DNA from: an uncultured virus (IMG/VR IMGVR_UViG_3300022555_000035)
Taxonomy: Duplodnaviria; Heunggongvirae; Uroviricota; Caudoviricetes
Strand: one strand, 5' to 3'
IMG/VR virus record: IMGVR_UViG_3300022555_000035
DNA length: 20,614 nucleotides
In this document: piece by piece, positions 1 through 18,742 of the stretch
Layout of the letters: each line of letters opens with the position of its first letter
Position numbering within the stretch: the first letter of the stretch is position 1
Translations under genes and position numbers: made by a program
Notes under the pieces: model-generated
Seen by the model: the letters and a program-made list of their open reading frames with translations, nothing else
The model's database searches: none
What the model was told of the DNA's origin: nothing

Positions 1-11
1 TTACCAAGATA

Positions 12-3000
12 ATGGGAGAATATTCTGCTGGACAGTTTACAGAGATGTATACTGCTATTAAGAATGCTCTTGCAAATCCACAGTCTGCTTTAGGTAGTCT
101 ACAGGCACAGATAAATCAGGCAATGGGAATAAAAAATACCGCTGCAAATTCTCAGAAAATGATGATGGCTGGTCCTATACAGGCAATGAAAATGTCTGCT
201 ACTACTGGGTTAAAAGATATCATGGACCAGGTAATGACTACTACTCCTAAAGGATCTGCTGGGTATCCTGCACTAATGCGACAAGCAGAAGCCTATAGAG
301 ATACACTAACTAAAATTGCTAATATTAATAAAGAAGTATTCGGCGAGCATGCCACTGGTGCACAGGAGAAGACAAGAGGATTCTTCAGTTCTATGATTCG
401 TGCAGCTACTGCTTTAGGAGCTGCTTGGTATATGATTAGTCGTATACAAGTAGCATTCCAAAGTCTTGTAATGCCGGGATTGACATATGCAAGATTAATT
501 GAGACTACTAATGTAGGATTTGCTGCCATACTGATGTCAATGACTAAGTTGAATGGTCAGTCACTTACATGGGTTCAATCAATGAATATGGCCGCTGATT
601 TATCTAAAGAAGTGACAGATAATGCTCTTCGTTTTGGACTAGATGCAATTGAACTACAAAAGCTCATTCAAGGTGTCGTAGGTGCAGGTCTCGGTTCTAA
701 TATGTCACTCGAACAAATTATCAGATTATCTACAGTTGCAGCCTCTGCTATTAAGCAAATTGGATTACCTGATACACAGTTCATTCAAGAAGTTCGAGAT
801 ATGATGCAGGGCGGTATTCAGATACAGAGTTCCGTTCTTGCTACGCAGTTAGGTTTGACTGACGCGATTGTCAATCAGGCCCGTGCATCTGGAACGGTAT
901 TTGAAATGCTTATGGAACGGATGTCTGGTTTCGCTGCTGGACAATCTGCCGTATTTGATACTCTTGACGGAAAAGTAAACATGACTGTTGACGCTTTCAA
1001 ACGCCTTTCAGCTGAAGGCGTGGCTCCGTTGATTAATACGGCAAAGCCTGTGCTCGATTTCCTCTTGAAAGAAATGATTACAAACTTTGACGCTTTCAGA
1101 AAAGGTGCTTCTCCTGAATTCAATACTACTTTTATAACAAAAATGCAAGAGGCAATACGTACTTTTATAAAAGTATGTAGAGATGCTATTAATGTACTTG
1201 AAGTTCTATACAATGCTTTTAAAATAGTAAGTAAAGTATCAGATTGGTTACCTGGTTCTGGTACTTCTCAATTAGCAGCAGTACTTATTTACTGGTTCGG
1301 TATTAGGAAAATAATGGTAGCTCTTCCTGCAGCAGGTAAAGCAATTGTAGCAATGTATCAAGAAATTAAAGCGGCTGCATACGCTGCATCAATTGCACAA
1401 ACACTTGCTGGAGGAACTGCAACTACAGGTACTACTGCTGTTGCCGGTGCTGCTGTTGCCGGTGCTGCTTCTAGAGTAATATTAGGCTCCGCAGGCCAGG
1501 TAATAAGTACTGTAGCACCTGCAGCTGCCGCTGGTACTGGTATAGCAGGAGCACGTGCTCTTGTAGCCGGCGGAGGATTAGGTGCGGGCATATTAGCTGC
1601 TTTTGGCGGCGCTGCTGGTATTGCTAGTGTTGCTCTTCCAATAATATTAGCAGTAATTGCTACAGGCGCGATTGCATATTATTTAAGTAAGAGCGGTTAT
1701 GGTAGTGCTTTACCTACAGAAAAAGCTCCTTCTATAGCAAACTTTACTGCAATGCGTAAAAAGTATGATAGCCCTCTCGAAGGTGAAGATGCTGGAGAGA
1801 TTGGTAGTCTCTACGAAACCTATCAACGAGAGATAGTTCTTATTGATGACAAGCGTAAAGAACTGTTAGAGACGTTCCGCGTAGGTAATATTGATAAAGA
1901 AAAGCTCACCACCGAACTTACCGCCCTATATGAAAAAGAAGTTGCAATGGATATCGAGCGACAAAAAGTTGTTAAAGAGGCTCTCGAGAAGCAATTACTA
2001 GCTTTAGGTGCTCCTTTAGTCGCGTCGCCAGATCTTGATATCAGCGATATTATCAATAGAGGCGAATATGTTGGTAATGTTACTGTAGGAGAATCTGATG
2101 CTGTACAGGCAGTTAGAGCTAAGATTGAAGCAGTAACCGCTGAGATACAAGCACTGTTTAACATCGGTAAGTTAGCTAGAGATAAAGCAGCTACACTTGC
2201 TGGTATCGAAGCTAAAAATGCCACTGTTAAGCAACCAGAAATCGAAGCAATTCGGAAAGCAATTTCTGAGTATCACAGTAACCGTATTGACATGGAAGTA
2301 TCAATTGCAAAGAAGAGCAATGAGCTTATACTGCAACGGTTAGAAAGATTATACTCCGCTCGTGGTATTTCCTCAGCTGATTATGTAGCTAAGAAATTAG
2401 CAATTGAATTAGCTAATATTGATTTGGATATTGCAGCTGCGAGACAGAAGCAAGGACTCATTATTAATGAGATGAGATTGCTACTCAATAATATGGTTAC
2501 TACAGTACGTGATGCCATTAAAAATGCAAACACTGATGTAACTAAACAAAAAGTTAGAGCTACAAGCATGGGGGATTTGGTTGATCTTACACAGAAAAAT
2601 GTAGGTCAGTATAAAGTAGGTTGGATGCCAGGTAGATATAACGCACAAGAAGATGGCGTATATGGTCAAGTAAACAGCTCTATCCTGTTAGATTTTCAGC
2701 GGGTAATGAACTGGTTAAGTATTAATCAACCAGGACAAACAACAGTTACGAGTACTAATCGTACAGGAGATCCTGGTGCTCATGGCGGAGGATTAGCATT
2801 CGATCTTCAAAATGCTAGCTGGTATGGTAAAGAGGTCAGAGCAGGTTCACCTGAATGGGTTGAAGCACAGAAAATGATTAAAGCATTCACCGATATGGGT
2901 CTTACTGTATTGAATGAATTAAATCCCGAAGATGCACGTAAACAGTATAAAGATCCAGCAAATGCTCCTGCTTGGGGAGGAGCGCATTTAGATGTACGTG

Positions 3001-5069
3001 TAGATAATTGGGCAGAATTACTATCAATGCCTAAGACAGGATCTGCAGCACAATTTAACCAAGACGTATATGGCGCTCCTACAGCAGAGAAGGAAGCTGT
3101 TAAACAAGGTTTAATAGCAGTAGCAAAAGCAGGTTTAGGGGGCCCCATGTCGGCGGGTAATGGCATGGCACGTATTGATGCAGAAGTTGCTGCAGTAATG
3201 GCTAGACTAGGTATTAGGCCGAAAGAAGTTAGTCCTACAGTTGCTAATGTAACAGATAAATCAACAGGTATCAATAGGCTGATATTAGATCGTTTGTTAG
3301 CTCTTAACTCATTAGGATCTAATGCTTTGGGTATACAACAAATATCTGAAACATTGAATACGCAAGGAGCATTTGAAAAATTAGGGGAACAAATATTCAA
3401 TGCTGAAACACAAAAGACAATGGCTATTGAGAAGGCTTATTATGAGCTTATTGATAAACACATTGAAGATATTATGTCTACGCTTACTTTCCTGGACAAA
3501 GCAGAAAAAGCATCGCCTACTCCTATTAAAGCTTCTGAGTATAAAGCCATATCTGCTCCTTCTCAGGCAGATTTCGAGCGTTGGGCAAATCTACAGAAAA
3601 CTAAACCTATTGAGGCATATCCGGAAATACTTGCGGAATTGGTTAAGAAATATGAACTTGAGGCAAAAAGCAATCCAGAGGCTAGAGCGGTACTTCGTAC
3701 AATTCTAGACTTCATCAAAGAGAATAGGCAGCAACTTACTGAAGGGGGCCCCAGTGCGTTAAAAGGCTTTACTACCGTATCACAAAATGCTGCAGCTACT
3801 GCTAATGTTACTAGTGCTATAACAACTGCTGAAACATCCGCAGCTGCTTTGGAAAAGGGTACTAATGAAGTATTACGTAAGAGTTATGGAAAATCTTTTG
3901 CACAGCTTAAAGCTGAGTTAGATAAAGTATTTGCCAACGATGAATATGCTGCTACTATCAGAGTATTAGAAAATGCAATGACTAATCTACTGACGGTAGC
4001 GGGTAAGACTATCAATGACAAAGAATACATCGCGTTACAGAAGACACTGGAAGAAACTAAGAACAAGGTAAATGATCTCAAAATAAGTTCTCTGGAAATG
4101 TTTGTTGCAATGGCTAAAGGTGATTACTCATTAGCCGAAGCTAATCGTAAACTGAAGAACTGGAAAGGCGGGCCTACTGGGGGCAATGCAGTAGATAATG
4201 CACAGAGACAAAAAGATGCACAACCGCAACTGCAAACATGGCAAGCACAATGGGAATCACAACAAACGCAGCTAAATCAAGAGAATGCTTCTCCTAATAG
4301 AGATATAAGCAAAGTAATCGCACTCACCAATGCCATTGCAACTCTCAAGGGACAATACGCTGATTTGAACAAGGAAGTCAGCGGATTCTCCATATCAGGA
4401 GCTGCGTGGATTAATACAGCAGGGTTACATGAAGTAATGGCTACTAGTATGGCAGATTCTTTCATGAGTATCATTGATGGTTCTAAATCCGTAGTAGAGG
4501 CCTTTAAATCAATGGCACTAAATGTGGTTAAATATATTCTCCAAATGATGCTGCAGGAGCTGGCCTGGAAAGCAACTTCTTCTATTCTGAAGGGAATAGG
4601 ATTTGGTGGAGGAGCTACTGCTTCTAGTGGTAAAGGATCCTTCCTTCAGGGTAATACTTCTGGTGGTATATCTGGTATTTTTGGACAGTATGCTGAAGGT
4701 GGTTTAATCAAAGGTCCAGGTACAGGTACTAGCGATTCCATATTAGCACGAGTAGCCAATGGAGAGTTTATTGTAAGAGCAGCATCTGTTGATACTTACG
4801 GAGTAGATTTCTTCCAACGTCTGAATAAAGGATTGATTCTTTCTAATAAATTGCCACGCTTTGCTGACGGCGGATTAGTGACATCACAGTCGCAAACAGC
4901 CAATCTCTTCCAGGCGAACGGCGCATCTTCTGCTCCTGCTTCTACAAGCAATTCCCCGTCGATAGTAATGCATATACACACTCAAAACGCAGAATCTTTC
5001 CGACAAAGTAAAGGACAGATTACAGCAGATATGACCAGAGCCTTGATGCAAGGAAGGAGAAATATGTAA
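12..5069 (+). CDS. Phage tail tape measure protein, probably 5'-truncated by the window edge, with an internal M15-like peptidase domain
   Basis: 1685-aa Ala-rich helical ORF with hydrophobic segments. C-terminal motifs YAEGGLIKGPGTGTSDSILARVANGEFIV..FADGGLV and AESFRQSKGQI..GRRNM are typical of TMPs upstream of DUF2460 genes. The frame is open from base 3 (ACC AAG ATA ATG), so the true start is likely upstream. Confidence 0.93.
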   Translation: MGEYSAGQFTEMYTAIKNALANPQSALGSLQAQINQAMGIKNTAANSQKMMMAGPIQAMKMSATTGLKDIMDQVMTTTPKGSAGYPALMRQAEAYRDTLTKIANINKEVFGEHATGAQEKTRGFFSSMIRAATALGAAWYMISRIQVAFQSLVMPGLTYARLIETTNVGFAAILMSMTKLNGQSLTWVQSMNMAADLSKEVTDNALRFGLDAIELQKLIQGVVGAGLGSNMSLEQIIRLSTVAASAIKQIGLPDTQFIQEVRDMMQGGIQIQSSVLATQLGLTDAIVNQARASGTVFEMLMERMSGFAAGQSAVFDTLDGKVNMTVDAFKRLSAEGVAPLINTAKPVLDFLLKEMITNFDAFRKGASPEFNTTFITKMQEAIRTFIKVCRDAINVLEVLYNAFKIVSKVSDWLPGSGTSQLAAVLIYWFGIRKIMVALPAAGKAIVAMYQEIKAAAYAASIAQTLAGGTATTGTTAVAGAAVAGAASRVILGSAGQVISTVAPAAAAGTGIAGARALVAGGGLGAGILAAFGGAAGIASVALPIILAVIATGAIAYYLSKSGYGSALPTEKAPSIANFTAMRKKYDSPLEGEDAGEIGSLYETYQREIVLIDDKRKELLETFRVGNIDKEKLTTELTALYEKEVAMDIERQKVVKEALEKQLLALGAPLVASPDLDISDIINRGEYVGNVTVGESDAVQAVRAKIEAVTAEIQALFNIGKLARDKAATLAGIEAKNATVKQPEIEAIRKAISEYHSNRIDMEVSIAKKSNELILQRLERLYSARGISSADYVAKKLAIELANIDLDIAAARQKQGLIINEMRLLLNNMVTTVRDAIKNANTDVTKQKVRATSMGDLVDLTQKNVGQYKVGWMPGRYNAQEDGVYGQVNSSILLDFQRVMNWLSINQPGQTTVTSTNRTGDPGAHGGGLAFDLQNASWYGKEVRAGSPEWVEAQKMIKAFTDMGLTVLNELNPEDARKQYKDPANAPAWGGAHLDVRVDNWAELLSMPKTGSAAQFNQDVYGAPTAEKEAVKQGLIAVAKAGLGGPMSAGNGMARIDAEVAAVMARLGIRPKEVSPTVANVTDKSTGINRLILDRLLALNSLGSNALGIQQISETLNTQGAFEKLGEQIFNAETQKTMAIEKAYYELIDKHIEDIMSTLTFLDKAEKASPTPIKASEYKAISAPSQADFERWANLQKTKPIEAYPEILAELVKKYELEAKSNPEARAVLRTILDFIKENRQQLTEGGPSALKGFTTVSQNAAATANVTSAITTAETSAAALEKGTNEVLRKSYGKSFAQLKAELDKVFANDEYAATIRVLENAMTNLLTVAGKTINDKEYIALQKTLEETKNKVNDLKISSLEMFVAMAKGDYSLAEANRKLKNWKGGPTGGNAVDNAQRQKDAQPQLQTWQAQWESQQTQLNQENASPNRDISKVIALTNAIATLKGQYADLNKEVSGFSISGAAWINTAGLHEVMATSMADSFMSIIDGSKSVVEAFKSMALNVVKYILQMMLQELAWKATSSILKGIGFGGGATASSGKGSFLQGNTSGGISGIFGQYAEGGLIKGPGTGTSDSILARVANGEFIVRAASVDTYGVDFFQRLNKGLILSNKLPRFADGGLVTSQSQTANLFQANGASSAPASTSNSPSIVMHIHTQNAESFRQSKGQITADMTRALMQGRRNM

Positions 5070-5683
5070 TGGCTACTGTACTAGGATTCCATGACGTACA
5101 ATTTCCTAAAGAACTATCCTGGGGCGCTATTGGCGGTCCAGGATATAGTACAGGAATAGTTAAAACTGTTACGGGAGGAGAATCTCGTTTACCTATCTGG
5201 GCACAGGCTCGTTGTTCGTATCAAGTAGCACACACTATAAAAAGTCAAGCAGAGATGGATATACTACGTAATTTCTTCTTGGCACGAAAAGGTAAAGCGT
5301 ATGGTTTTCGTTTTCATGATTGGATGGATTATAGTGTAAAAGGGCAGTACTTGTTTACAGGACCAGATATTCAAGGACAACTAGTCAAGACATATATTGA
5401 CGACAATGGTTATACTGATACTCGAATTATTAGTCGTCCGATAATGGATACTATCGTATTATATGTCAATTCTGTAAAAGTAGCTACAGGTAGTGTATAT
5501 TATATTAACTCTAATGGATTAATTACTTTAGGGTTTGAAATTCTCGATGGCGATATTATATCAGCCGACTTTGAATTTGATGTACCTGTACGATTCAATA
5601 TGGATAACATGGATATTGTGGTTGAAGATTTCGATTGTTTCTCTTGGAATGGTATTACTCTTATTGAAGTAAGAGAGGTATAA
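5069..5683 (+). CDS. DUF2460 (TIGR02217-like) distal tail protein, copy 1
   Basis: Motifs FHDVQFP..GGPGYST, FFLARKGKAYGFRFHDWMD, FEFDVPVRF, ITLIEVR. TAATG overlap with the TMP stop. Confidence 0.9.
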   Translation: MATVLGFHDVQFPKELSWGAIGGPGYSTGIVKTVTGGESRLPIWAQARCSYQVAHTIKSQAEMDILRNFFLARKGKAYGFRFHDWMDYSVKGQYLFTGPDIQGQLVKTYIDDNGYTDTRIISRPIMDTIVLYVNSVKVATGSVYYINSNGLITLGFEILDGDIISADFEFDVPVRFNMDNMDIVVEDFDCFSWNGITLIEVREV

Positions 5684-5687
5684 CATT

Positions 5688-7373
5688 ATGATAATGGATA
5701 CTATTATACCCGATGTTGATGTTGAAGCATTACCTTTTCATGAAGCATTATTTCCTGCAGCAATATCTAAAGGAGTTTCAGGAGGACCACGTTTCAATAC
5801 TGGTATAGTTTGTGTAAGTTCTGGTAATGAGCAAAGAACACAAAATTGGGCAGATCCTGTTTACGCATTTAATGTCACACATGCAGTAAAAAGTCAAGCA
5901 CAATTAAATATGCTAATTGCTTTTTTCAGGTTAAGAAAAGGTAAGGCAACGGGTTTTCGTTTTCGAGATTTTACCGATTACAAAATTACTGGTGGCTGGT
6001 TGATGACAGGTGACGCTGCTACAAATATGAACGGCTTACAAATTGCAAAATATTATATTGATATCAATACTGCTTATTATACGAAGCGTATAATAAAGAA
6101 ACCTGTAGCAGGTACTGTAGTATTATATCTTGACGGAGTAGTAGCAGGTGCACAGTATTACACAGTAGACTATACTACAGGTAAAATAACAGCAGATTAT
6201 ATACCTACAGTAGGAGAGATAATATCTATTGATTGTGAATTTGATGTACCTGTCAGATTTGATATTGATGAGATGCCTGCCTCTATTGATGATTGGGATT
6301 CCTATTCCTGGAGCGGCATTACGCTGAATGAAGTAAAATTAGCTGACCCGTCCGCAGGTTCCGGTAATACTAATACCGGTGTATTGTTGTTTTTAGAGCA
6401 GCGGACTGTTGAAATTGAGTCCGATGGCTACTATGAAGAGATACAGCAGTTTTGGCTGGTGACTCGCAGTTTTACATCAAGCTTAACAACTGAAGTTCAA
6501 ATCACGCCGCCTTATAGTTCACCAACGGATTATCCATATCAAGTAACTTTTTTTGTCGCGGAGGGGAACGATTATTTCATTTTGTGGAGTGGCGAAATAC
6601 TGGAGCATAACGGCGTTCGCACAAATGTAGAAGCAGATGCGTATTATCAGGTTGTGCAGGATGCGAAGATTGAAAACGGCGAAGTTGCGTGGTGGGTATT
6701 AATACAAGGCACGGGTTATTATAACAACTCTACACAACACCGGCCTTGGGTTGTCAAGCTGCTTTGTTTCCACAATACACAGCTTTTTAGAACGGTGGAT
6801 TATTCTGCTCAAATGGACGCGCTGGCACTTCCGGGTTACGTGGCCACACTAACCAACATCTCGCCGCAACGGTGGACAAACACAATATATCTGACGGGCG
6901 ACCAGTACAACGATTATTCAGCAGCGGACATCGTTATCAGACAGGGATATTGGATGCGTAGTTTGTTAGGGGAATGGCTGTATGTTAGAAATAAAATTCG
7001 AAATTCGCAGACAGGAGAGTATACTGAATCAAGCATTAATGCCTTCCCGACTAAAACGAGAACACTTGTTAACGACATCACAATAACGCAGGTATTCAAA
7101 GCTCGCTCAGATGGATGGGGGGGAGAATGGATATATACCGAATACGGGATAGAAATTGGCCAAAGTACGTTTGCAGTCCCGGATGGAAATACAGGGTATA
7201 ACAGCGGCTGTACCGTGTTTGGTAGCGGGAATGGCAAAGCGTGGGCAATTAATCCGGAAGATGGTACGTGGGAACTTTATACGCCGGGCAAAAATATACA
7301 ATCTGGTACGTTTGCGCCATGCTTGAATAGAACCGCTTATCTTTACACGGGCACTTTACCCGCATTACGCTGA
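5688..7373 (+). CDS. DUF2460 distal tail protein, copy 2, with a 341-aa C-terminal inserted extension
   Basis: Residues 1-220 carry FHEALFP..GGPRFNT, FFRLRKGKATGFRFRDFTD, EFDVPVRFD, ITLNEVK. Residues 221-561 are an unrelated aromatic/beta-rich region lying between 32-bp direct repeats. Confidence 0.88.
   Translation: MIMDTIIPDVDVEALPFHEALFPAAISKGVSGGPRFNTGIVCVSSGNEQRTQNWADPVYAFNVTHAVKSQAQLNMLIAFFRLRKGKATGFRFRDFTDYKITGGWLMTGDAATNMNGLQIAKYYIDINTAYYTKRIIKKPVAGTVVLYLDGVVAGAQYYTVDYTTGKITADYIPTVGEIISIDCEFDVPVRFDIDEMPASIDDWDSYSWSGITLNEVKLADPSAGSGNTNTGVLLFLEQRTVEIESDGYYEEIQQFWLVTRSFTSSLTTEVQITPPYSSPTDYPYQVTFFVAEGNDYFILWSGEILEHNGVRTNVEADAYYQVVQDAKIENGEVAWWVLIQGTGYYNNSTQHRPWVVKLLCFHNTQLFRTVDYSAQMDALALPGYVATLTNISPQRWTNTIYLTGDQYNDYSAADIVIRQGYWMRSLLGEWLYVRNKIRNSQTGEYTESSINAFPTKTRTLVNDITITQVFKARSDGWGGEWIYTEYGIEIGQSTFAVPDGNTGYNSGCTVFGSGNGKAWAINPEDGTWELYTPGKNIQSGTFAPCLNRTAYLYTGTLPALR
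6316..6347 (+). repeat. 32-bp perfect direct repeat, left copy (GCATTACGCTGAATGAAGTAAAATTAGCTGAC)
   Basis: Identical to 7362-7393; encodes ITLNEVKLAD, the end of the DUF2460 domain. Confidence 0.97.
6348..6372 (+). repeat. 25-bp perfect direct repeat, copy 1 (CCGTCCGCAGGTTCCGGTAATACTA)
   Basis: Identical to 8242-8266; both copies read PSAGSGNT in frame. Directly abuts the 32-bp repeat. Confidence 0.97.
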
Positions 7374-7393
7374 ATGAAGTAAAATTAGCTGAC
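7362..7393 (+). repeat. 32-bp perfect direct repeat, right copy, followed by TAA
   Basis: Identical to 6316-6347. Followed by TAA (7394-7396) and the GGAGG RBS (7401-7405) of the hub gene. Confidence 0.97.
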
Positions 7394-7413
7394 TAATGTA
7401 GGAGGAGAGATTT

Positions 7414-8835
7414 ATGCCTGCTGTTACTGCTAAAGAATGGCTCAATGATCCAGTAGTGCACCCTGCATGGTGCTGGTATTTGAAATTGACAGATGGTACT
7501 GAAATGGGATTTACTAGCCATGACAAAAATATAACATACAACAATGTGTTATATGAAGCTGCGACAGGTTTCGTACCCTCAGCAGTAGAAACAAGTAATA
7601 ATATGGCAGTAGATAATTTAGAAGTACAAGGGTTCCTTAACAGTGATAGAATTACTTCTCATGATCTAATGTCCGGTCGTTATGATATGGCAGAAGTTTG
7701 GGTATATATTCTTAATTGGGCAGATTTAGGTAAGCTGCCTTTGATTGTACGACGCGGTATGCTAGGAGAAGTAAAACACAGTAAGCAATCATTCACTGCG
7801 GATTTGCGCGGGCTCCTGGACGCGTATCAGGCTAAAGCAGGTAAGATTTATCAAAAGATATGCAGAGCGCATTTTGGCGATAGTAAGTGTCAGGCAGATG
7901 TTACTGCATATACTGCTTCTAGTTCAGTGTCTGAGATATATACTGACGGAAATATTGAGACTTACTTGTCACAAGCTACTACGTTTTTTAACTATGGTAT
8001 ACTTACCTGGACATCAGGAAAAAACAATGGACTAAAAATAGAAGTAAAATATTATACGCTAACTACTTCTGGAGGAATAATTCAGCCGTTCACGCCCCCC
8101 ATTTGGGTTCCAGCTGTAGGCGACACTTTTACAGTGATTGCCGGATGTGATGGTAATTTTACTACTTGTCAAGCAAGGGGAAATTATATAAATTTCAGAG
8201 CAGAACCCTATGTACCAGGTAACGACTATATGACCTCATATCCGTCCGCAGGTTCCGGTAATACTACTACTAATACTTCTGGTACAAGTGCTGTAACTTA
8301 TCCCTTAATATCTAGTACAGGCGGAGCTAATACTTACTCATATACTGATACGAATGGTGTTATACAACATACTGATCAAACCTGTACAGTAGTTACTATA
8401 CAAATAGCAGCAGCTGTTGTAACAGATCCTACAAAATTGGCCTATATTATATGGGTACCTTCTTTGACATATTTTTTAGAGGGAGGGCAACAATATACTA
8501 TGGGACTAAATAATTCTTATATAGGATCAAGTAATGTACTTGCATCAGTTAATATAGGAGCGGCAGAATCAGAAGCTACAAGTACGTGGCAGCATTGCTC
8601 AACTACTGGTGCTTGGACTAAAGTACAAATTTATGGTGCTGATTACTGGCAAGCACCTGCAAGGACATTACTGACTGATCAGCCTTTAAATAGTACTTTT
8701 CAGATTGTTTGTAGAGCAGGTGAGGGTATTGATGCTGCTAATGTAATTTTAATATTTGGGGCTCTTGGTTCGATGTGTGATTGTGTTAGACCTCCTGCTG
8801 CTAATAATAATAATAATGATGGAGGTAATCAATAA
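7414..8835 (+). CDS. DUF2163 / phage BR0599-family tail hub protein with a ~197-aa C-terminal extension
   Basis: Motifs DGTEMGFTSHD, AVDNLEVQG, GRYDMAEV, CRAHFGDSKC, GDTFTVIAGCDGNFTTC..NFRAEPYVPGND, including the conserved Cys set. GGAGG RBS. Canonical position between DUF2460 and NlpC/P60. Confidence 0.9.
   Translation: MPAVTAKEWLNDPVVHPAWCWYLKLTDGTEMGFTSHDKNITYNNVLYEAATGFVPSAVETSNNMAVDNLEVQGFLNSDRITSHDLMSGRYDMAEVWVYILNWADLGKLPLIVRRGMLGEVKHSKQSFTADLRGLLDAYQAKAGKIYQKICRAHFGDSKCQADVTAYTASSSVSEIYTDGNIETYLSQATTFFNYGILTWTSGKNNGLKIEVKYYTLTTSGGIIQPFTPPIWVPAVGDTFTVIAGCDGNFTTCQARGNYINFRAEPYVPGNDYMTSYPSAGSGNTTTNTSGTSAVTYPLISSTGGANTYSYTDTNGVIQHTDQTCTVVTIQIAAAVVTDPTKLAYIIWVPSLTYFLEGGQQYTMGLNNSYIGSSNVLASVNIGAAESEATSTWQHCSTTGAWTKVQIYGADYWQAPARTLLTDQPLNSTFQIVCRAGEGIDAANVILIFGALGSMCDCVRPPAANNNNNDGGNQ
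8242..8266 (+). repeat. 25-bp perfect direct repeat, copy 2
   Basis: Identical to 6348-6372; sits exactly where the BR0599 core ends. Confidence 0.97.
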
Positions 8836-9269
8836 TGATTACAAGGCAAGCTATTATAAATGAAGCCCGTACATGGATAGGTACTAAATGGCAGCATCAG
8901 GCCAGTCTCAAAGGGGTAGCTTGTGATTGTGTAGGATTACTTCGCGGTACTTTAGGTAATCTTACAGGAGAAAAATACATTGAAAATGTAGATTATCCGG
9001 CTACATGGCATCTTTTCAAAAAAGAAGAACAGCTGTATAATAACATGGCAATGTATACCAAAGAAATACCTAAAGAGGAAATGCTCCCAGGAGATCTTAT
9101 CTTGTTTGGTTTCGGTAAAGGTCCTGCACATCATTGTGGGATACTTGCTACTCCTACGACGTTTATTCATTCGTGGGCAGATATTGGTAAGGTAGTCGAG
9201 ACTCGTTTGGATGATTTTTGGACGAAGCATATTCGTAAAGTTATGCGGCATCCGGAGGTAATTGATTAA
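8835..9269 (+). CDS. Phage NlpC/P60-family cell wall peptidase / tail assembly protein
   Basis: EARTWIGTKWQHQ..GVACDCVGLLRG (catalytic Cys), PGDLILF, HCGI (His), FIHS. TAATG coupling to both neighbours. Confidence 0.93.
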   Translation: MITRQAIINEARTWIGTKWQHQASLKGVACDCVGLLRGTLGNLTGEKYIENVDYPATWHLFKKEEQLYNNMAMYTKEIPKEEMLPGDLILFGFGKGPAHHCGILATPTTFIHSWADIGKVVETRLDDFWTKHIRKVMRHPEVID

Positions 9270-11602
9270 TGGCAACTCTGATAATCGGCGCAGTATTAGC
9301 CGCGAGTCCCATCTTGGGTCCAGCTGCATGGCTCATTAGTTCTTTAATCATGACAGGTGCTGGTTTTATCGATATGCTACTTTTTGCTCCTAAAACTCCA
9401 GATCAAGAAGGTCCAAGGATGGATGACCTAAAAATTCAGACGTCTACTTTTGGCGCTCCTATTCCTATTGTATATGGTACTACTCGTATCGCAGGTAATA
9501 TTATTTGGGGTACTGATTATACTGAGCATACAAAAACAGAATCTGCCAGCAGCGGTGGAAAAGGTGGTGGAGGTGCTAAGGTTAAATCATATACGTACTC
9601 CATTACTTTTGCTGTGGGATTGGCGCAAGGTCCTTGTTCGTTTGATAAATCTTTACAAAAAGTTTGGGCTGATGGTAAAATATTTGATATGACTGATATA
9701 GCCTATACTTTTTATGAGGGTACAGAAACTCAAATGCCAGATACTTATACTGAAGGTATTTTAGGTGTAGGTAATGTACCTGGGTATAGAGGATTATGCT
9801 ACATAGTTTTTCATGATTTAAATGTAAGTCCTATGGGTAATCGTATTCCATCATTATCATTCGAAATTAAGTCCAATAAAAGTAATAAGCTTAATGAAAT
9901 CCTGAGCGATATAAGTCTTGATGCTGGTTTAACCGTTGATGATATTGATGTTACAGATCCTGCTATTTGTGATATTACTATTTCTGGTATGTATATTGAT
10001 GGTAATAAATCGTTTAGAGAGCGTATAGAACCATTGTCTCTTGTGTATTTGTTTGATGGCGTAGAGACGAACGGTAAAGTAGCATTCAAAAAACGAAATC
10101 TTACTAAAAATGTAGTAAAAATTACTGATTCTGAACTAGGAGCGTATGAGTCGTCGGCATCAGAAGATCCATATACAATTACTAGGAAATATGAACGTGA
10201 ATTACCTGCATCTCTTTGGTTAGAGTATATTGCTAAAGATGGCGATTATCAATTAGGAGGTATGCCTGCATATCGTATTAATACGGTTAGTAAAGAAGAG
10301 CAAAAGATTACAGTACCCATTGTAATGGAAGATGCTGATGCTAAGAGTGTAGCAGAATTACGACTATTTGAACAGTGGTCTTCTCGTAGTACTTTTGAAG
10401 CTGCTTTATCTTTACGATATGCGTATCTAATTCCTGGTAATCCTATTGAAGTTACGCTTAATGATGGCAGTGTTCATTTATTGATGATAGTCAAAACATC
10501 TTTTGGAGGGCCCGGCATATTCAAAATAACAGCAGTGTTCTCAGGTGCAACGGCATATACAACTGCAGGAGGAATTGTAAAAACTGTAGATACTATTACA
10601 GGGATTACTTCTTACACAACTACTACAGCCGCACGTATTGTGGATACAAGTGTAGTACAAACACCGGCATTACAACCTACTACTGTTTATCATGAGATAA
10701 TGGATATTTGTCGCTTACCAGGTGATACCAGTACGGATTATGATTTTGCCTATGTAGCAGCAGGCGCTGTAGTTTTCTATGGTGCAAATACTTTACGCAC
10801 CTATGACGGTGGTACTACTTGGCCATGGGCTGCAGAGAATGATGTCAATGCTACTATTGGTGCTACTAATACTCTTCTCAATTCAGGACCTGTATACTTC
10901 TTTGATGAAGGTAACACTGTAACTGTTACACTGATAAACGGTACGTTATCTAGTCATACGAAAGAAGAAGTATATGCTGGATATAACTTAGCAATAATCG
11001 GCAATGAGATTATTCAATTTAGAACGGCTACATTAATTGCAGAAAAAGTATATGTACTTTCGGGATTGCTACGTGGTTGTGGTGGTACAGATGATCAGAT
11101 AGGAACGCATACAGTAACTGATAGATTTGTGCTGTTGATATTTTCTTCGTTAGAGCGAATGCCTATACCAACTACTGACAGAAATGTCATACGAAATTAT
11201 AAATTCGGCCCCTACACAAAAGCTATAACTAGTAATCTTTATTCCGATAAGACATTTACAAGTACTGGAAGATCTTATAGAAATTGGTCAGTGTGTCAGG
11301 TAAAAGGCGTAAGAGATGATACAGGCGAGTTGACTATTTCATGGGTACCTCGTAGTAGAGTCGGTTCTACTTGGTCCGACTATATTGATGTTACTCTTAC
11401 TAGTCCGGAAGTGTATACAGTTGAAATAATGTCAGAAAGTACGGTTGTAAGAGAAGTAACAGTAACTGCAGCTACTACATATGTATATACAGTAGCAAAT
11501 CAAACAGCGGATTTTGGTTCTAGTCCTGATGAGGTTATGATACGTATATACCAGATGGATACAGTAATAGGTCGCGGAATAGTAAAAGAAATTACAATAT
11601 AA
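9269..11602 (+). CDS. Central tail / host-specificity protein (Phage-tail_3, RcGTA megatron-like, without the TIM-barrel domain)
   Basis: EGPRMDDLKIQTSTFGAPIPIVYGTTRIAGNIIW, GGKGGG, VWADGK, PGYRGLCYIVF..GNRIPSLSFE, EIIQFRTA..LSGLLRG..GT, ISWVPRSR, IYQM..IGRG. Confidence 0.9.
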   Translation: MATLIIGAVLAASPILGPAAWLISSLIMTGAGFIDMLLFAPKTPDQEGPRMDDLKIQTSTFGAPIPIVYGTTRIAGNIIWGTDYTEHTKTESASSGGKGGGGAKVKSYTYSITFAVGLAQGPCSFDKSLQKVWADGKIFDMTDIAYTFYEGTETQMPDTYTEGILGVGNVPGYRGLCYIVFHDLNVSPMGNRIPSLSFEIKSNKSNKLNEILSDISLDAGLTVDDIDVTDPAICDITISGMYIDGNKSFRERIEPLSLVYLFDGVETNGKVAFKKRNLTKNVVKITDSELGAYESSASEDPYTITRKYERELPASLWLEYIAKDGDYQLGGMPAYRINTVSKEEQKITVPIVMEDADAKSVAELRLFEQWSSRSTFEAALSLRYAYLIPGNPIEVTLNDGSVHLLMIVKTSFGGPGIFKITAVFSGATAYTTAGGIVKTVDTITGITSYTTTTAARIVDTSVVQTPALQPTTVYHEIMDICRLPGDTSTDYDFAYVAAGAVVFYGANTLRTYDGGTTWPWAAENDVNATIGATNTLLNSGPVYFFDEGNTVTVTLINGTLSSHTKEEVYAGYNLAIIGNEIIQFRTATLIAEKVYVLSGLLRGCGGTDDQIGTHTVTDRFVLLIFSSLERMPIPTTDRNVIRNYKFGPYTKAITSNLYSDKTFTSTGRSYRNWSVCQVKGVRDDTGELTISWVPRSRVGSTWSDYIDVTLTSPEVYTVEIMSESTVVREVTVTAATTYVYTVANQTADFGSSPDEVMIRIYQMDTVIGRGIVKEITI

Positions 11603-11617
11603 AAGGAGAGAGATGTA

Positions 11618-12499
11618 ATGAGCAGTAATTATACTACGAGAATAGCTCTTCCATACCTTGCAGTGGCACAGGCGCAAAAAGAATTAGCTCATAATGAGGC
11701 GTTGAACATACTGGATATTTTTGTTCAGCCAGTAGTACAAGCTATGCAAAACACTCCGCCAATCGCGCCTACATCTGGACAGGCTTGGATTGTCGGCAGT
11801 TCCCCTTCAGGCGTATGGGCGTCTCATGCTGATTCTATGGCTTATTATCTCAGTGGCTGGTTTTATTACTCTCCTTTTTTAGGTATGAAATTCTACAGTG
11901 TGGCTGATGATGCTGATTATGCTTATGGTTCTACTGGTTGGAATATTTCTGTAGGAGCACAAGGGCCTACTGGAGCTACTGGTGCAACAGGTGCAACAGG
12001 TGCAACAGGTCCTGCTGGATTGTCTGCAGATATGGTTACTAATACCTATTTAGCTAATATGGTCACAGGTACTATTAAAGGACGTGTGGCTGCAGGTACG
12101 GGTGATCCTTCTGATTTGACTGCCGCACAAGTACGTACTTTATTAAATGTAGCAGAAATCGGTAGTACTCCGGTAGATTTCACAATGTTTTTTCCAGGTA
12201 CGTATACTGCTTCGCAAATACTTGCGAAACTGAAAATGATACGTGAAATAGTATTACCTGCATCGCTTACTGGATCTGTTGCTGATATAGGTATTAATCC
12301 TGCAGCCACTGCCGTATTATCTATATTACAAAACAATACAGAAATAGGTACGGCTTCTATAAGTACTGCAGGTGTTGTTACGTTTACTTTTACAGCAGAA
12401 ATTACTTTAGCGGCAGGTGACATACTTAAGATATTGGCGCCTGCTTCTATCGATGCTACTCTTGCAAATGTATCATTATCTTTGACAGGAGTGAGATAA
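11618..12499 (+). CDS. DUF2793-containing tail fibre protein with short collagen-like repeat
   Basis: N-terminal LPYLAVAQAQKELAHNEALNILD..WIVG..GVW; Gly-X-Y run; fibre motif LANMVTGTIKGRVAAGTGDPSDLTAAQVRTLLNV; AGGAG RBS. Confidence 0.88.
   Translation: MSSNYTTRIALPYLAVAQAQKELAHNEALNILDIFVQPVVQAMQNTPPIAPTSGQAWIVGSSPSGVWASHADSMAYYLSGWFYYSPFLGMKFYSVADDADYAYGSTGWNISVGAQGPTGATGATGATGATGPAGLSADMVTNTYLANMVTGTIKGRVAAGTGDPSDLTAAQVRTLLNVAEIGSTPVDFTMFFPGTYTASQILAKLKMIREIVLPASLTGSVADIGINPAATAVLSILQNNTEIGTASISTAGVVTFTFTAEITLAAGDILKILAPASIDATLANVSLSLTGVR
11981..12007 (+). repeat. 9-bp tandem repeat (GGTGCAACA)x3 encoding collagen-like GAT
   Basis: Read directly from the sequence. Confidence 0.9.
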
Positions 12500-12765
12500 A
12501 TGTCACTTATATTATTTGAGGGATTTGATATTTATAGTAATGTATTTCTAATAGATGCTGCAATAGTTGGTGCTACTGGAGCATCATTTCCAGCAGGTCG
12601 TTTTGGAGGTAAAGCACTTGCAATACATATGCAGTTACACAAATTCAAACAGAAGTAATTACTCAGTCTACTGGTGAAATACGTGTATCATTACTGGCTC
12701 TATCAGTACTAAGCAGTACAGAGGCACCAAGTAGTACTTACTACCCAATTATTTGCACGACTTAA
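12500..12765 (+). pseudogene. Probable deletion remnant of virion structural gene(s)
   Basis: ATG 12500 directly follows the upstream stop and gives MSLILFEGFDIY..GRFGGKAL.. (52 aa, stop at 12658). A second frame (12613-12765) reads ..YAVTQIQTEVITQSTGEIRVSLLALSVL..* with no start codon. Confidence 0.55.
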
Positions 12766-12821
12766 AGGGGCCCAGGTGCACGGGTCCTAATTAGTAATAA
12801 TTACTATTTAAGCCAAAAGTG

Positions 12822-12850
12822 TTGATTTTTTTATAAGGGTGTAGTATAAT
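12822..12850 (+). promoter_or_regulatory. Sigma70/sigmaA-type promoter
   Basis: TTGATT (12822-12827), 17-bp spacer, TATAAT (12845-12850) in an AT-rich intergenic gap. GGGGGG RBS at 12861-12866 precedes ATG 12875. Confidence 0.75.
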
Positions 12851-12874
12851 ATATAATATAGGGGGGTCTATAGT

Positions 12875-13303
12875 ATGGCATCTGGACGAGCAGATCTTAT
12901 AATGGAAAAGGGCTCCGATTGGTACGTGCTGCTAACTACTAACCAAGTAGATGGCACTCCTACTGATCTTACTGGCTGGAATGCTCGTTGTCAGATACGT
13001 AAAACAGCTAGTACTTCTTCACCCGTAGTAGCAGTTCCTATTGCTACTATTGACAATCCATTGGATGGAGAAGTAGTATTGACACTTACTGCAGCAGAGA
13101 CTTCTACCATACCTACTTCAGGATCTAATTTTACAGAACCATCGCGTTATCTATATGATTTGGAAATCTTCGTATTAGAAGACGTATTGGGTGTAGATGG
13201 CAATCCTGTATTAGATGCTAATGGTAATGTTACACAAGAAGAAACAACAACGGCTAAACTACTTCATGGATTCATAAGTGTAATTCCGGAGGTACCTAAA
13301 TAA
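12875..13303 (+). CDS. Small beta-sandwich virion adaptor protein (BppU-N / LtfC-like)
   Basis: Pattern DL..EKGSDW..DGTPTDLTGWNARCQIR..GEVVLTLTAAET..YLYDLEI..LLHG...V.PEV, common upstream of phage fibre genes. Confidence 0.65.
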   Translation: MASGRADLIMEKGSDWYVLLTTNQVDGTPTDLTGWNARCQIRKTASTSSPVVAVPIATIDNPLDGEVVLTLTAAETSTIPTSGSNFTEPSRYLYDLEIFVLEDVLGVDGNPVLDANGNVTQEETTTAKLLHGFISVIPEVPK

Positions 13304-13866
13304 TGGCTGATGTAGAAGTTGTTGCTAATAATAAGACTACTGCCGTAACAGTAACTTATCTACCTCGCGGACCTCAAGGCAAGCCCGGCAATCTCGGAGT
13401 TTCTGGTTCTAAAGGAGAAAAAGGTGATTCAGGTCCTCCGGGAGAACAAGGACCTCCTGGTAAAGAAGGAAATCCTGGTGTACCTGGTCTTCGTGGTGAA
13501 TCAGGGGCTACGGATGCTCCCACTGATTACTTTTGTGGCGTAGGTGCTCTTAACTTGGGGCAACCAGTTTTCCTCACAGCTACAAATACAGTACTACCTG
13601 CGACAGCTGAGAATATTTCTCATGCTGGCAGAGTAGTTGGTATAGCCTTAAATGACGCTGTCACTGGTGAGATAGTACGAGTTAAACGTAGCGGAACCGT
13701 TACGAAAGATTCGTGGGACCTCACTCCTGGACAGCGTTATTATTTGGGCCCGGGAGGCGAATTTGTTCTTGATCCAGAAGGAATGGCGTTCGCACAGAAA
13801 ATGGGATTAGCAGAAGCTGCAACATCGTTGTTTATTCAAATGGAGTCGCCTATAGTATTATTATAA
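13303..13866 (+). CDS. Collagen-repeat fibre protein with C-terminal DUF2190/cement-like domain (module copy A)
   Basis: Long Gly-X-Y tract followed by GQPVFL..HAGRVVGIA..GEIVRVKRSG..WDLTPGQRYYLG..QKMG; paralog of 14232-14690. Confidence 0.75.
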   Translation: MADVEVVANNKTTAVTVTYLPRGPQGKPGNLGVSGSKGEKGDSGPPGEQGPPGKEGNPGVPGLRGESGATDAPTDYFCGVGALNLGQPVFLTATNTVLPATAENISHAGRVVGIALNDAVTGEIVRVKRSGTVTKDSWDLTPGQRYYLGPGGEFVLDPEGMAFAQKMGLAEAATSLFIQMESPIVLL

Positions 13867-13881
13867 GGGAGGAAAAATAAC

Positions 13882-14100
13882 ACGGCTAAAAAGTTTATTA
13901 CTCTGGTAAATGGTGTACAGCATCTCATTCCGTCAATTGATACTTCAGCGGGTGCTGGAAGTGCAGGAGAAGTTATTGCTGCGGATGAGAATGGAAAACT
14001 CAACCCTAGCTTTCTTCCGACTGGTGTAGGTGCAGATAATGCATCGCTGCCCGCAACTGAAGCCCTTGCAGCGGGCGATTTCTGTAATATCGTAGTGTAG
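13882..14100 (+). pseudogene. 5' remnant of a paralog of the 14713-15228 gene (ACG in place of ATG, truncated)
   Basis: GGGAGG RBS, then ACG-AKKFITLVNGV..DTSAGAGSAG..GKL..LPTGVGAD..EALAAGDFCNIVV*, aligning with MAAEKFITLNNGV..DTSAGVGDAG..GKL..LPSGIGAD..EALAAGDFVNIW. Confidence 0.88.
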
Positions 14101-14110
14101 TGGCAAACGG

Positions 14111-14242
14111 GACGGCGTGCAGTATTCTGACGTAGCGGCTTACACCTATGATGTGGAACTGATTACCATCTCGACCGGCAAGGTCCATCGGTGGCTGAAC
14201 GGCAGCGTGTCAATCAGCCCGGAGGTGACGTATGGCGAATGA
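14111..14242 (+). pseudogene. 3' remnant of a paralog of the 12875-13303 adaptor gene
   Basis: Startless frame DGVQYSDVAAYTYDVELITISTGKVHRWLNGSVSISPEVTYGE* aligns with SGSNFTEPSRYLYDLEI..AKLLHGFISVIPEVPK*. Confidence 0.8.
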
Positions 14243-14690
14243 GCCGATTGTCGCGGTTATCGCCGCGACTGAAACGATTGTCGCGGTAGTACGTGAGAGG
14301 GGTATTCCGGGACCACCCGGGCCTCCGGGATCCTCGGCAGCAGAGGAACTAACCGCATACACAGCAGGCGGCGCCATCAATGCCTATCAGCCACTTTTCA
14401 TCACGAACTCGCTGACGGTACTGCCGGCATCCGGCGAAAATGCCACTCACGCCGGCAGGATAATTGGCATGAGTATCAGTGCTGCGGCAACCGGCGAAAC
14501 AGTGTACTGCAAACGGTCGGGCAATGTGACTAATCCGGCATGGGCGTTGACACCCGGGGAGAGGTATTATATTGGCGCCGGAGGGGAGTTGACCACAAGC
14601 ACAACCGGGATGGCCTTTGTTCAGAAAATCGGCATCGCAGACTCCGCAACAGTGTTGTTTTTGCAAATTGAACCGCCCATACTCGAGTAA
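14232..14690 (+). CDS. Short collagen + DUF2190/cement-like protein (module copy B)
   Basis: GIPGPPGPPG, then QPLFIT..VLPAS.EN.THAGRIIG..KRSG..WALTPGERYYIG..GMAFVQKIG; paralog of 13303-13866. GGAGGTG RBS. Confidence 0.8.
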   Translation: MANEPIVAVIAATETIVAVVRERGIPGPPGPPGSSAAEELTAYTAGGAINAYQPLFITNSLTVLPASGENATHAGRIIGMSISAAATGETVYCKRSGNVTNPAWALTPGERYYIGAGGELTTSTTGMAFVQKIGIADSATVLFLQIEPPILE

Positions 14691-14712
14691 TAAAAAATAG
14701 GAGTGTGTAAAC

Positions 14713-15228: not shown

Positions 15229-15232
15229 CGCC

Positions 15233-15349
15233 ATGAAAAACATTCTGACGCTCGCAAACGGGCAGACGGCGGCGGTGAAAAACCCGCCTGTCGTCTACAC
15301 AGCACAACCGGCGGACCCGGTGGACGGCGATAACACTGGCATAATGTAA
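15233..15349 (+). pseudogene. 38-aa ORF, probable truncated fibre N-terminus
   Basis: MKNILTLANGQTAAVKNPPVVYTAQPADPVDGDNTGIM*. Ends just after a P..P..GD fibre-type motif, where base composition turns AT-rich. Confidence 0.5.
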
Positions 15350-15358
15350 GTAAGTGAG

Positions 15359-15386
15359 AAGGGGTTGTTAAGAGCAACCCCTTTTT
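15359..15386 (+). terminator. Putative intrinsic terminator hairpin
   Basis: AAGGGGTTG (15359-15367) pairs with CAACCCCTT (15375-15383), running into a T tract that ends at 15386. Confidence 0.65.
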
Positions 15387-15398
15387 GGAGGTGATTAG

Positions 15399-17723: not shown

Positions 17724-17738
17724 AAGGAGGGCGGGAAA

Positions 17739-18722: not shown

Positions 18723-18742
18723 GAAAGAGGGGGGTAAGGTTT

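Follow-up and report, generated by a model that had tools for sequence, protein, structure and literature searches.

Results

Organization of the tail-tip genes

The window, by which we mean the whole stretch of 20,614 nucleotides that was analysed, belongs to a freshwater siphophage with an RcGTA/lambda-type tail tip, and its tail-tip genes follow the order tape measure, Dit1, Dit2, hub (gp84_N/BR0599), NlpC/P60 and megatron-like protein. All features described here lie on the plus strand. Two distal tail (Dit) genes of the Rcc01695/DUF2460 type stand in tandem. The first, Dit1 (5069..5683), encodes an unextended protein of 204 aa (PF09343, 4.7e-52) that is 44% identical to the core of the second, and its 3′ end was recognized in a repeat search of the window as a diverged homologue of the 32-nt sequence described below. 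The second, Dit2-X (5688..7373), is a fusion ORF of 561 aa that comprises a Dit core (residues 1–220), a linker (221–230), a segment that we call module X, and a terminal Ala-Leu-Arg and stop codon drawn from a repeat. Residues 18–217 match DUF2460/PF09343 (4.1e-50, 170.5 bits; cut-off 30.4), and the core passes TIGR02217 (1.6e-52, 178.1 bits versus a threshold of 136.65) and matches the RcGTA Dit of PDB entry 6tba at 1.3e-27. Dit2 is thereby a member of this family by sequence and by gene position, but with 561 aa it departs from the family habit of about 200 aa ending at the domain. The hub gene that follows (7414..8835) has, by family matches, a gp84_N plus BR0599 core (residues 1–276) and a 197-aa C-terminal extension, Y, which is preceded by a linker.

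A perfect direct repeat flanks an in-frame insert

The sequence GCATTACGCTGAATGAAGTAAAATTAGCTGAC is present in two perfect copies in direct orientation, at 6316–6347 and 7362–7393, with 1046 bp from start to start. These were the only two matches in the window when up to three mismatches were allowed, and none of 100 dinucleotide shuffles gave two or more. The left copy comprises the final 10.7 codons of the Dit2 core, up to the last sense codon GAC, and leads in frame from the Rcc01695/DUF2460 core into an extension of 341 aa (residues 221–561). The right copy is read by the fusion ORF in a frame other than that of the Dit2 core, giving Ala-Leu-Arg-TGA (stop at 7371–7373), such that the protein terminates PALR within the repeat. 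In the original frame the same copy encodes ..ITLNEVKLAD, after which come TAA, AGGAGG and, at 7414, the hub ATG; it retains the ancestral Dit2 3′ end, and the segment 7394–7413, as read from the sequence, carries the relic TAA (7394–7396) of an ancestral short Dit2 together with the hub ribosome binding site (RBS) AGGAGG. The initial annotation of this DNA had described the spaced repeat that ends the DUF2460 domain, the in-frame 341-aa extension and the out-of-frame use of the right copy ahead of a preserved TAA and RBS, and each of these features was confirmed.

The unique insert (6348–7361) is 1014 nt long, which is exactly 338 codons, all of them open, and lies precisely after the last sense codon of the second Dit gene and before its stop codon. 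It consists of a single in-frame ORF fragment; the repeat search of the window revealed no terminal inverted repeats at its ends, and no Rfam RNA family matched in the window. Its GC content of 0.453 and GC3 of 0.445 compare with 0.361 and 0.205 for the Dit2 core and 0.397 and 0.297 for the hub core, which bears out the earlier impression that the insert is richer in GC than its flanks. With GC3 values of 0.157–0.297 among its tail-tip neighbours, the insert is compositionally foreign relative to the tail-tip module, although its GC3 does not stand out against the rest of the phage, whose head and other genes range from 0.36 to 0.67.

Integrity of the assembly and search for a short allele

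A 32-nt repeat is barely longer than a k-mer of 31, and the Logan contigs break at this repeat, as might be expected of an assembly chimera in which an insert from another genome was joined at a k-mer-sized repeat. Against this possibility, which the initial annotation had raised, the same arrangement with identical joins is present in three other assemblies, and these and G001 are base-identical to the window (0 mismatches over 6–14 kb). The 561-aa fusion protein is encoded on 27, 1 and 1 contigs, and all 29 assembled contigs of its cluster carry the long form. In Logan contigs from three studies (2016–2020), the 1074-nt contig containing the insert has depths of 34.7, 105.4 and 127.9, while the flanks have depths of 32.2–30.6, 119.1–126 and 135.1–129.5; the insert/flank ratios of 1.10, 0.86 and 0.97 scatter around 1, and insert and flanks co-vary over a four-fold range. 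The unitig of the 32-mer has depths of 80, 240 and 290, about twice those of insert and flanks. The equal depth of insert and flanks and the doubled depth of the 32-mer indicate that the insert occurs once per genome, at the abundance of the phage. A fourth run of low depth also holds a piece of X (contig 6388–6617). Furthermore, the reading frame is continuous through the left junction, and the 5′ end of the insert copies a sequence of the same phage. The arrangement is not an assembly artefact, and a chimera is scarcely credible.

The initial annotation had also suggested a recombinational on/off switch. As an on-to-off device, the repeats would be kept since recombination or slippage between them regularly yields a subpopulation with the 220-aa Dit2, as a form of host-range bet-hedging. 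At 32 bp, the repeat has the length that phage or host recombination systems require, and the annotated geometry holds: a crossover between the copies would keep the hub RBS and leave an intact short Dit2 ORF that closes with ..KLAD-TAA. Phages are documented to undergo deletions at direct repeats (PMC5630979), and in run X3 the insert lies about 14% below its flanks (105 versus 119–126), a difference that we treated as noise, though a minority deleted allele would look alike. On the other side, an exact look-up of the short-allele protein with both possible starts gave no match among ~15 billion proteins, and no short Dit with more than 70% identity to Dit2 was found in a length band of 121–385 aa. 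The uniformly long form of the 29 contigs and the depth ratios around 1 likewise speak against the device. No joints or loose ends across the insert were seen in the Logan contigs, but contigs built at k=31 cannot display the deleted junction: deletion over a 32-nt repeat makes no new 31-mer, so that these contigs say nothing against a deleted allele.

Loss of a segment between direct repeats is, moreover, irreversible, because the excised 1046-bp circle would contain neither a replicon nor a recombinase gene, and the reversibility of a phase switch is thus missing from this direct-repeat arrangement. The 43 kb inspected yielded no recombinase, and the identity of the two copies needs no selection if the event was recent. 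We consider the on-to-off device unlikely, and the proposed switch is left unsupported.

The short Dit is the ancestral form

Comparison with relatives, which the initial annotation had recommended as a way of finding empty sites, proved informative. At the DNA level the window had no match among 50,697 phage records. At the protein level, the closest homologue of Dit2 in the 121–385-aa band (P0011; 70% identity) is a short Dit that ends ..GITLVEVKLV. Across a survey of 80 genome loci, Dits stop 0–2 codons past the domain in all 78 closed frames, a count that left out three further frames running off contig ends, and across 80 viral loci they stop no more than seven codons past the domain in all 80 closed frames. 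Every one of the 157 surveyed Rcc01695-family loci with a readable end has a short Dit. Because the closest relative and these 157 loci are all short, the extension of Dit2 is derived and the short form ancestral. As judged from these sequences, a C-terminal extension of the Dit is unique to Dit2-X in the survey of 157 Rcc01695/GTA-type loci readable to the end. A literature search found no description of a C-terminally extended Dit with flanking repeats, and none of the papers found for DUF2460, Rcc01695 and TIGR02217 concerns extensions, as judged by titles and abstract openings.

Module X has one distant homologue

Module X proper, the foreign coding segment (6377..7361; GC3 0.445), has a single distant homologue, P0010, a free-standing protein of 505 aa that was detected by HMMER (E 4.8e-6) among 1.84 billion representatives. 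The two proteins are homologous at both ends (BLASTP, two stretches of 93 aa with 41% and 34% identity). By comparison of the C-termini, ..YPYTGALPAAPE in P0010 and ..YLYTGTLP|ALR in X, the junction lies some 3–4 codons before the stop of the source gene, and X retains the C-terminus of the P0010 family minus about 3 residues. The 338 open codons and the homology to P0010 identify X, on sequence grounds, as real coding sequence. P0010 itself is a singleton on a 2.8-kb contig and has no match in viral contigs; in the ESM Atlas it gave phage-tail-like leads, all of them below threshold (<=0.79) and not counted as evidence. Two of the three HMMER matches to X (P0008 and P0009) were rejected as low-complexity or repeat proteins.

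Other searches with X gave only this phage's two contigs among viral contigs, one identical locus among metagenome contigs, no match among genome contigs, and the query alone in a word-based protein search; nor was a paralogue found in the 43 kb of the phage genome inspected. AlphaFold2 modelled X with a mean pLDDT of 31, and no usable result was obtained from Pfam, PHROGs, NCBIfam, PDB sequences or the ESM Atlas, with no match to a carbohydrate-binding module (CBM) family. With no fold or family match, the role of X must be judged from its position at the baseplate and from analogy with decorated Dits, by which it is most likely an accessory host-adhesion module. X is a candidate new adhesion domain of an orphan family.

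The insert begins with a copy of the hub linker

The insert opens with a 29-nt linker (6348..6376) encoding PSAGSGNTNT, which is identical at 28 of 29 positions to the hub sequence at 8242–8270, where the repeat search and a motif count place the linker PSAGSGNTTT (8242..8270) at the boundary between the hub core, ending ..GNDYMTSY|, and extension Y. A 25-mer of the linker is exact at both sites, none of 100 shuffles had two or more copies, and both copies are codon-aligned; the linker was absent from all other viral contigs searched. Apart from the linker, Y and X have no homology, and no family match was found for Y. In L097, the closest viral relative, the same hub boundary ..GNDYMTSY| is followed by a different extension, of 102 aa, while the hub C-terminal tail is merely 1–30 aa in 66 of the 67 other viral hub frames examined. 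If the 32-nt Dit2 end is called A and the 29-nt linker B, the two repeat families interleave in the order A-B-X-A-hub-B-Y.

This interleaved order would fit a two-step history, a variant of the domain capture discussed below, in which a relative possessed a hub-linker-X gene and unequal crossover brought hub-X to a position ahead of the resident 32-mer, TAA, RBS and hub-Y. Dit2 would then have become fused to linker-X when the first hub core was later lost by an in-frame deletion, accounting for both repeats. Consistent with this history, the hub boundary holds different modules here (197 aa) and in L097 (102 aa), nearly all other viral hubs examined have short tails at that boundary, and Dit1/Dit2 provide a precedent for tandem duplication at this locus. 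It requires two illegitimate events, though, none of the databases searched gave a hub-X protein, and the GC3 of X (0.445) is unlike that of the hub (0.297) or Y (0.157). We regard it as distinctly unlikely.

Families of mobile elements

Searches for recombinase, integrase and resolvase families found none in the 16 ORFs of the window, in agreement with the initial annotation, or in 23 upstream ORFs (together 43 kb of a genome of ~83–86 kb). This result bears on the idea, put forward at the outset, of an att-like integration footprint, whereby a small mobile cassette with a 32-bp core would have entered at the Dit 3′ end by means of a site-specific recombinase acting in trans. Identical 32-bp "cores" do stand on both sides of the insert, and the original 3′ end of the target gene, now displaced, survives in the right copy, just as it does in the attR of classical integrations. 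Yet the insert is a lone in-frame ORF fragment without terminal inverted repeats, its 5′ end copies the phage's own hub linker, and the inserted copy does not restore the stop codon of its target, unlike classical elements. Nor were copies found at other sites or in other genomes, as an integrative element would leave: the 32-mer was absent from other viral contigs and always present twice in those of this phage, and X-like proteins are limited to this phage and the distant free-standing homologue. What stands of the att-like proposal is a generic insertion footprint; an att site is very unlikely.

A transposable element with a target site duplication (TSD) was rejected on the lack of an inverted repeat at the insert ends and of a transposase family in the window; a duplication of 32 nt is, besides, far longer than usual TSDs. 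A diversity-generating retroelement was likewise rejected, with no reverse transcriptase family in the window and with repeats that are 32 nt long and identical.

Discussion

Dit2-X probably represents the capture of a domain, recent and now fixed, which came about through illegitimate recombination or template switching and produced a C-terminally decorated Dit. According to this proposal, a 1014-nt in-frame segment, made up of a 29-nt copy of the hub linker and ~985 nt of a foreign gene running nearly to the natural 3′ end of that gene, would have entered Dit2 right behind its last sense codon, ahead of the stop. Template switching, or else illegitimate recombination or unequal crossover between sister or related genomes, may have served as the mechanism. 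A return to the phage sequence 32 nt upstream of the point at which it had been left would have duplicated the Dit2 3′ end, and the 32-nt repeat is by this reasoning a scar. The product would be a ring-forming Dit core followed by a linker and ~330 residues of X at the C-terminus.

The 32-nt repeat is thus most likely an insertion scar and not a working on/off switch. It does permit precise reversion through homologous recombination or slippage, but this would amount to rare one-way loss and not to a regulated switch. Direct repeats are known to give deletion mutants in phages (PMC5630979). Dit2-X gives no grounds to postulate a new kind of genetic switch.

One feature of the locus sits less comfortably with domain capture: for random illegitimate recombination the junctions are very tidy, falling at the last sense codon, at the start of the linker and ~3 residues from the donor C-terminus. 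Selection for function can explain this tidiness, and a more directed cassette mechanism also could. As a long shot, the two interleaved repeats might be the working joints at which this phage lineage exchanges the C-terminal modules of its tail tip as cassettes. Were this so, adhesion modules would move between hub and Dit at a conserved Ser/Gly/Thr linker, and the 32-nt repeat would let a population shed its module precisely, giving virions with alternative tail tips.

Decorated Dits are an established route to extra host-binding capacity in siphophages, the acquisition of which is usually invisible because the junctions have decayed. The capture proposed for Dit2-X would be young enough to be read: the target duplication of 32 nt is perfect, the hub linker has been reused, the donor segment extends nearly to its own stop, and the composition at synonymous sites has not yet drifted to that of the neighbours. 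It offers a concrete and testable example of domain capture at the phage baseplate.

Among known systems, the integrative elements that target gene 3′ ends and whose attL and attR have a common core resemble this locus in their identical flanking sequence and in the rightward displacement of the original 3′ end. They differ in that no integrase was seen here, and the insert is an ORF fragment without other copies, which fuses onto its target and does not restore it. Deletion-prone direct repeats are known from phages T7, lambda and Sf6 (cited in PMC5630979). There, as at Dit2, short direct repeats around a dispensable segment permit precise deletion, but the segment in Dit2 is an in-frame domain, and not a spacer or insertion sequence, and no deletion variant was observed, which k=31 contigs cannot show.

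RcGTA possesses a single Dit of 210 aa (g12, Rcc01695; PDB 6TBA), which ends at the domain and whose C-terminal Arg209 contacts the baseplate (PMC7296036). The Dit2 core belongs to the same family, and the genes for tape measure, Dit, hub, peptidase and megatron follow the same order, whereas this phage has two tandem Dits, the second with 341 extra residues. In the evolved Dit described for siphophages of Gram-positive bacteria (Lactobacillus, Lactococcus and Streptococcus), a ring core bears a peripheral carbohydrate-binding adhesin module, which is by definition inserted in a loop of the galectin domain and which attaches to the host that the main receptor-binding protein also binds (PMC7291167). 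The initial annotation had likened the Dit2 product to such proteins, and the likeness holds insofar as Dit2 also carries an extra module, of 341 aa beyond the core, but not as to insertion in the galectin-domain loop. X matches no CBM family and is fused C-terminally after the last core residue, by way of a Ser/Gly/Thr linker, to a Dit of the Rcc01695/DUF2460 type, in which the 32-nt duplication scar is still visible.

Results

By family profile search, the window reads as a tail-tip operon of the RcGTA/lambda type, in the order tape measure, Dit1, Dit2-X, hub, NlpC/P60 peptidase, Rcc01698-like 'megatron' and fibres, the fibre genes carrying DUF2793 and collagen repeats. Dit1 (5069-5683, 204 aa) is the first of a tandem pair of distal tail protein (Dit) genes; the second, Dit2-X, is a fusion ORF of 561 aa (5688-7373) identified by ORF calling and translation, and the hub gene (7414-8835) encodes Phage_phiJL001_Gp84_N and BR0599 domains. 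Residues 18-217 of Dit2-X match DUF2460 (4.1e-50), and its core also matches TIGR02217, 'phage distal tail protein, Rcc01695 family' (178 bits; cut-off 137), and the RcGTA Dit structure 6tba (1.3e-27).

A repeat search of the window located the 32-mer GCATTACGCTGAATGAAGTAAAATTAGCTGAC in two copies of 100% identity (6316-6347 and 7362-7393; 1046 bp between starts); allowing up to three mismatches added no other match, and at least two matches occurred in 0 of 100 dinucleotide-preserving shuffles. The left copy finishes on the last codon of the Dit2 core (..ITLNEVKLAD), from which the frame continues for 341 residues. The right copy is translated in a different frame in the fusion ORF (ALR-TGA); read in its original frame, it leads into TAA, then AGGAGG and, at 7414, the start of the hub. 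The initial annotation had described the perfect repeat, the in-frame extension and the out-of-frame right copy with its preserved stop and ribosome-binding site, and in all three respects it was borne out. Between the two copies lie 1014 nt of unique insert (6348-7361), a whole number of codons (338).

The insert opens with 29 nt (6348-6376, PSAGSGNTNT) that match the hub gene at 8242-8270 (PSAGSGNTTT) at 28 of 29 positions. Both copies of this linker are codon-aligned, and the hub copy lies exactly at the end of the conserved hub core (..GNDYMTSY), where a 197-aa extension, Y, begins. The linker was absent from every other viral contig searched, and comparison of Y with X, the module beyond the Dit core and linker, revealed no relationship outside it. 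The genome order is A (32-mer), B (linker), X, A, [TAA, RBS, hub core], B, Y. Y (8242-8835) had no family match; it has a very low GC3 (0.157) and an Asn-rich C-terminal tail (..PPAANNNNNDGGNQ).

An assembly chimera at a k-mer-sized repeat, the case that the initial annotation had named against its own reading, is ruled out by identical joins in other assemblies and by insert depths that track the flanks. The arrangement recurs in G001, a separate sequence record, in an 82.6-kb metagenome contig and in two IMG/VR contigs of different metagenomic origin, with 0 mismatches over 6.0-14.2 kb. Public runs carrying the stretch come from three freshwater/lake metagenome studies (2016, 2017, 2020). 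Their Logan contigs (k=31) split at the repeat, as expected: the left contig reaches 6345 and the right one begins at 7364, with the repeat as a 32-nt unitig and the insert as a contig of 1074 nt (6318-7391). Insert and flank depths were 34.7 and 32.2/30.6 in run X1 (ratio 1.10), 105.4 and 119.1/126 in run X3 (0.86), and 127.9 and 135.1/129.5 in run X6 (0.97). The depth of the 32-mer unitig (80, 240 and 290, respectively) approximates that of insert plus flank, and therefore the insert is present once per phage genome over a four-fold abundance range.

Relatives were surveyed among the best 80 of more than 580 confirmed matches in each of two collections, bacterial genomes and viral contigs. 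In the former, 78 Dit frames stop 0-2 codons past the domain and 3 more run off contig ends; in the latter, each of the 80 closed Dit frames ends no more than 7 codons past it. Within the 121-385-aa band searched, the closest Dit2 homologue (70% identity) stops at the corresponding point with ..GITLVEVKLV, followed by homologues of about 199 aa at no more than 54% identity. These comparisons indicate that the short Dit is the ancestral form. The suggested search of relatives for empty sites or different inserts thus returned short Dits in both surveys and no Dit decoration, this phage being alone in the sample. Among the same best matches, 68 hub frames were closed in the bacterial genomes, with stops 4-18 codons past the core alignment, and 68 in the viral contigs, where 67 of the 68 (or, with L097 set apart, 66 of the other 67) end within 30 codons. 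The exception is L097, whose Dit is 50% identical and which is the closest relative among the viral contigs; at the ..GNDYMTSY boundary its hub continues into 102 aa unrelated to Y, and thus C-terminal hub decoration is a feature of the sub-lineage.

X had no matches in Pfam, PHROGs, NCBIfam or PDB sequences, and a word-based protein search returned only X itself. HMMER, run in full against 1.84 billion representatives, reported three matches, two of which were rejected as repeat-protein noise. The third, P0010, is a free-standing singleton of 505 aa on a 2.8-kb contig; it gives two alignments of 93 aa each, one near either end of X (41%, E 2e-8; 34%, E 1e-6). By these searches X is nearly an orphan. 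The C-terminal ends correspond (P0010 ..NRVAYPYTGALPAAPE; X ..NRTAYLYTGTLP followed by ALR), so the right junction lies about 3-4 codons short of the donor gene's natural stop, and the GCA (Ala) opening the right repeat may represent junctional microhomology. As the initial annotation had noted, the insert is more GC-rich than its flanks: GC3 is 0.445 in X against 0.205 in the Dit2 core, 0.297 in the hub core, 0.157 in Y and 0.21-0.30 in other tail-tip genes. Elsewhere in this phage, head genes and others range from 0.36 to 0.67; thus X is foreign to the tail-tip module, yet like the rest of the genome's gene pool.

The genome itself is a compositional mosaic, in which the tape measure-to-fibre block (window 1-13900) has a GC3 of 0.21-0.30 and the rest (G001 1-16500 and window 14200-20600) has 0.36-0.67 in head genes and most others; the whole tail-tip module may have been imported from a lower-GC lineage. 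A GC-rich island at 14232-15228 (GC 0.53-0.56) contains overlapping long ORFs on the plus (14232-14690, 14713-15228) and minus (14349-15032) strands, the plus-strand ORFs having only weak Phage_cement_2 and PHROG matches, so that either strand may be the coding one. Downstream of a glucosaminidase-type lysin (18719-19249), a 157-aa ORF (19644-20117) matches response-regulator receivers at 21.4 bits, below the 30.2 cut-off. In L015, another record used beside the window, the large terminase (7409-9559; Terminase_6C, 4.9e-9) may hold an intein, residues 139-231 giving a weak Intein_splicing match (25 bits, below the 35.8 cut-off). A DUF6884 protein gene (L015:5805-6200, minus strand; 4e-25) is extremely AT-rich (GC 0.225, GC3 0.083) among neighbours of about 46% GC and is probably a recent import.

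Discussion

The feature is best read as a domain capture that is recent and fixed and whose insertion scar can still be seen. The initial annotation had also entertained a recombinational on/off switch, in which X would be excised between the repeats; this reading is not supported and is an unlikely alternative. The exact 220-aa (or 218-aa) short protein was not found among about 15 billion proteins, no short Dit above 70% identity occurred in the 121-385-aa band, and every member of the Dit2-X protein cluster (27+1+1 contigs) is the long form. Deletion between direct repeats is one-way, and recombinase families were absent from the 16 ORFs of the window, as already noted there, and from 23 ORFs in 22.5 kb upstream. 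No Logan contig joins across the insert, although k=31 contigs cannot display the deleted allele, since loss of the sequence between two 32-nt copies yields no novel 31-mer; depth permits a deleted fraction of roughly 0-15%, the insert being 14% low in run X3. Rare precise reversion is physically expected, because PMC5630979 describes direct repeats giving deletion mutants in other phages, but nothing points to its being put to use.

We propose that the insertion arose through illegitimate recombination or a template switch, in the course of replication or of a co-infection. A nascent or broken strand would exit Dit2 at the last sense codon, pick up linker and X, either from the hub-linker-X gene of a relative or by copying first the hub linker already present and next some foreign DNA, and re-enter the phage 32 nt upstream of its exit, thereby duplicating the Dit2 3′ end. 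We propose that the junctions are tidy because selection favoured an in-frame, foldable product and intact hub translation signals. A two-step variant, in which unequal crossover sets hub-X beside hub-Y and an in-frame deletion then removes the first hub core, also fits, and agrees with the A-B-X-A-hub-B-Y order.

Dit1 and the Dit2 core (5688-6347) are 44% identical paralogues. Tandem Dit pairs are rare, with one among the best 80 of more than 580 loci in bacterial genomes (L052, from a Burkholderiaceae MAG, where both Dits are 208 aa long and the hub is short, at 299 aa) and one among the best 80 of more than 580 viral loci (L115); in cultured phages, 131 Dit places in 117 records allow up to 14 two-copy records, e.g. 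Brevundimonas and Ruegeria phages. Joined to G001 (G001:C1:16801 to window 5069), the tape measure ORF encodes 3606 aa, and the rule of ~1.5 angstrom of tail per tape measure residue predicts a tail about half a micrometre in length, which would be unusually long. The RcGTA Dit is described as a hexamer in which odd subunits contact the hub and even subunits the megatron, with the C-terminal Arg209 at the baseplate interface (PMC7296036). Dit1 and Dit2 may be specialised for such alternate positions, which would place three copies of X on each virion.

By analogy with RcGTA, X would be free to extend outwards from the edge of the baseplate on a flexible Ser/Gly/Thr linker joined to the end of the Dit core. 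Structure prediction of X gave no usable fold (pLDDT 31), so that an adhesion role stays an analogy; of the 'evolved Dit' first envisaged, the decoration itself stands, as a 341-aa extension, and the predicted structure does not add to it. Because of its position on the baseplate and the precedent of decorated Dits, X is most plausibly an accessory adhesion module. In phages that infect Gram-positive bacteria, the modules that decorate Dits are carbohydrate-binding and attach to the host (PMC7291167). Here, the insertion gave rise to a new form of Rcc01695-type Dit, decorated at its C-terminus with an orphan module.
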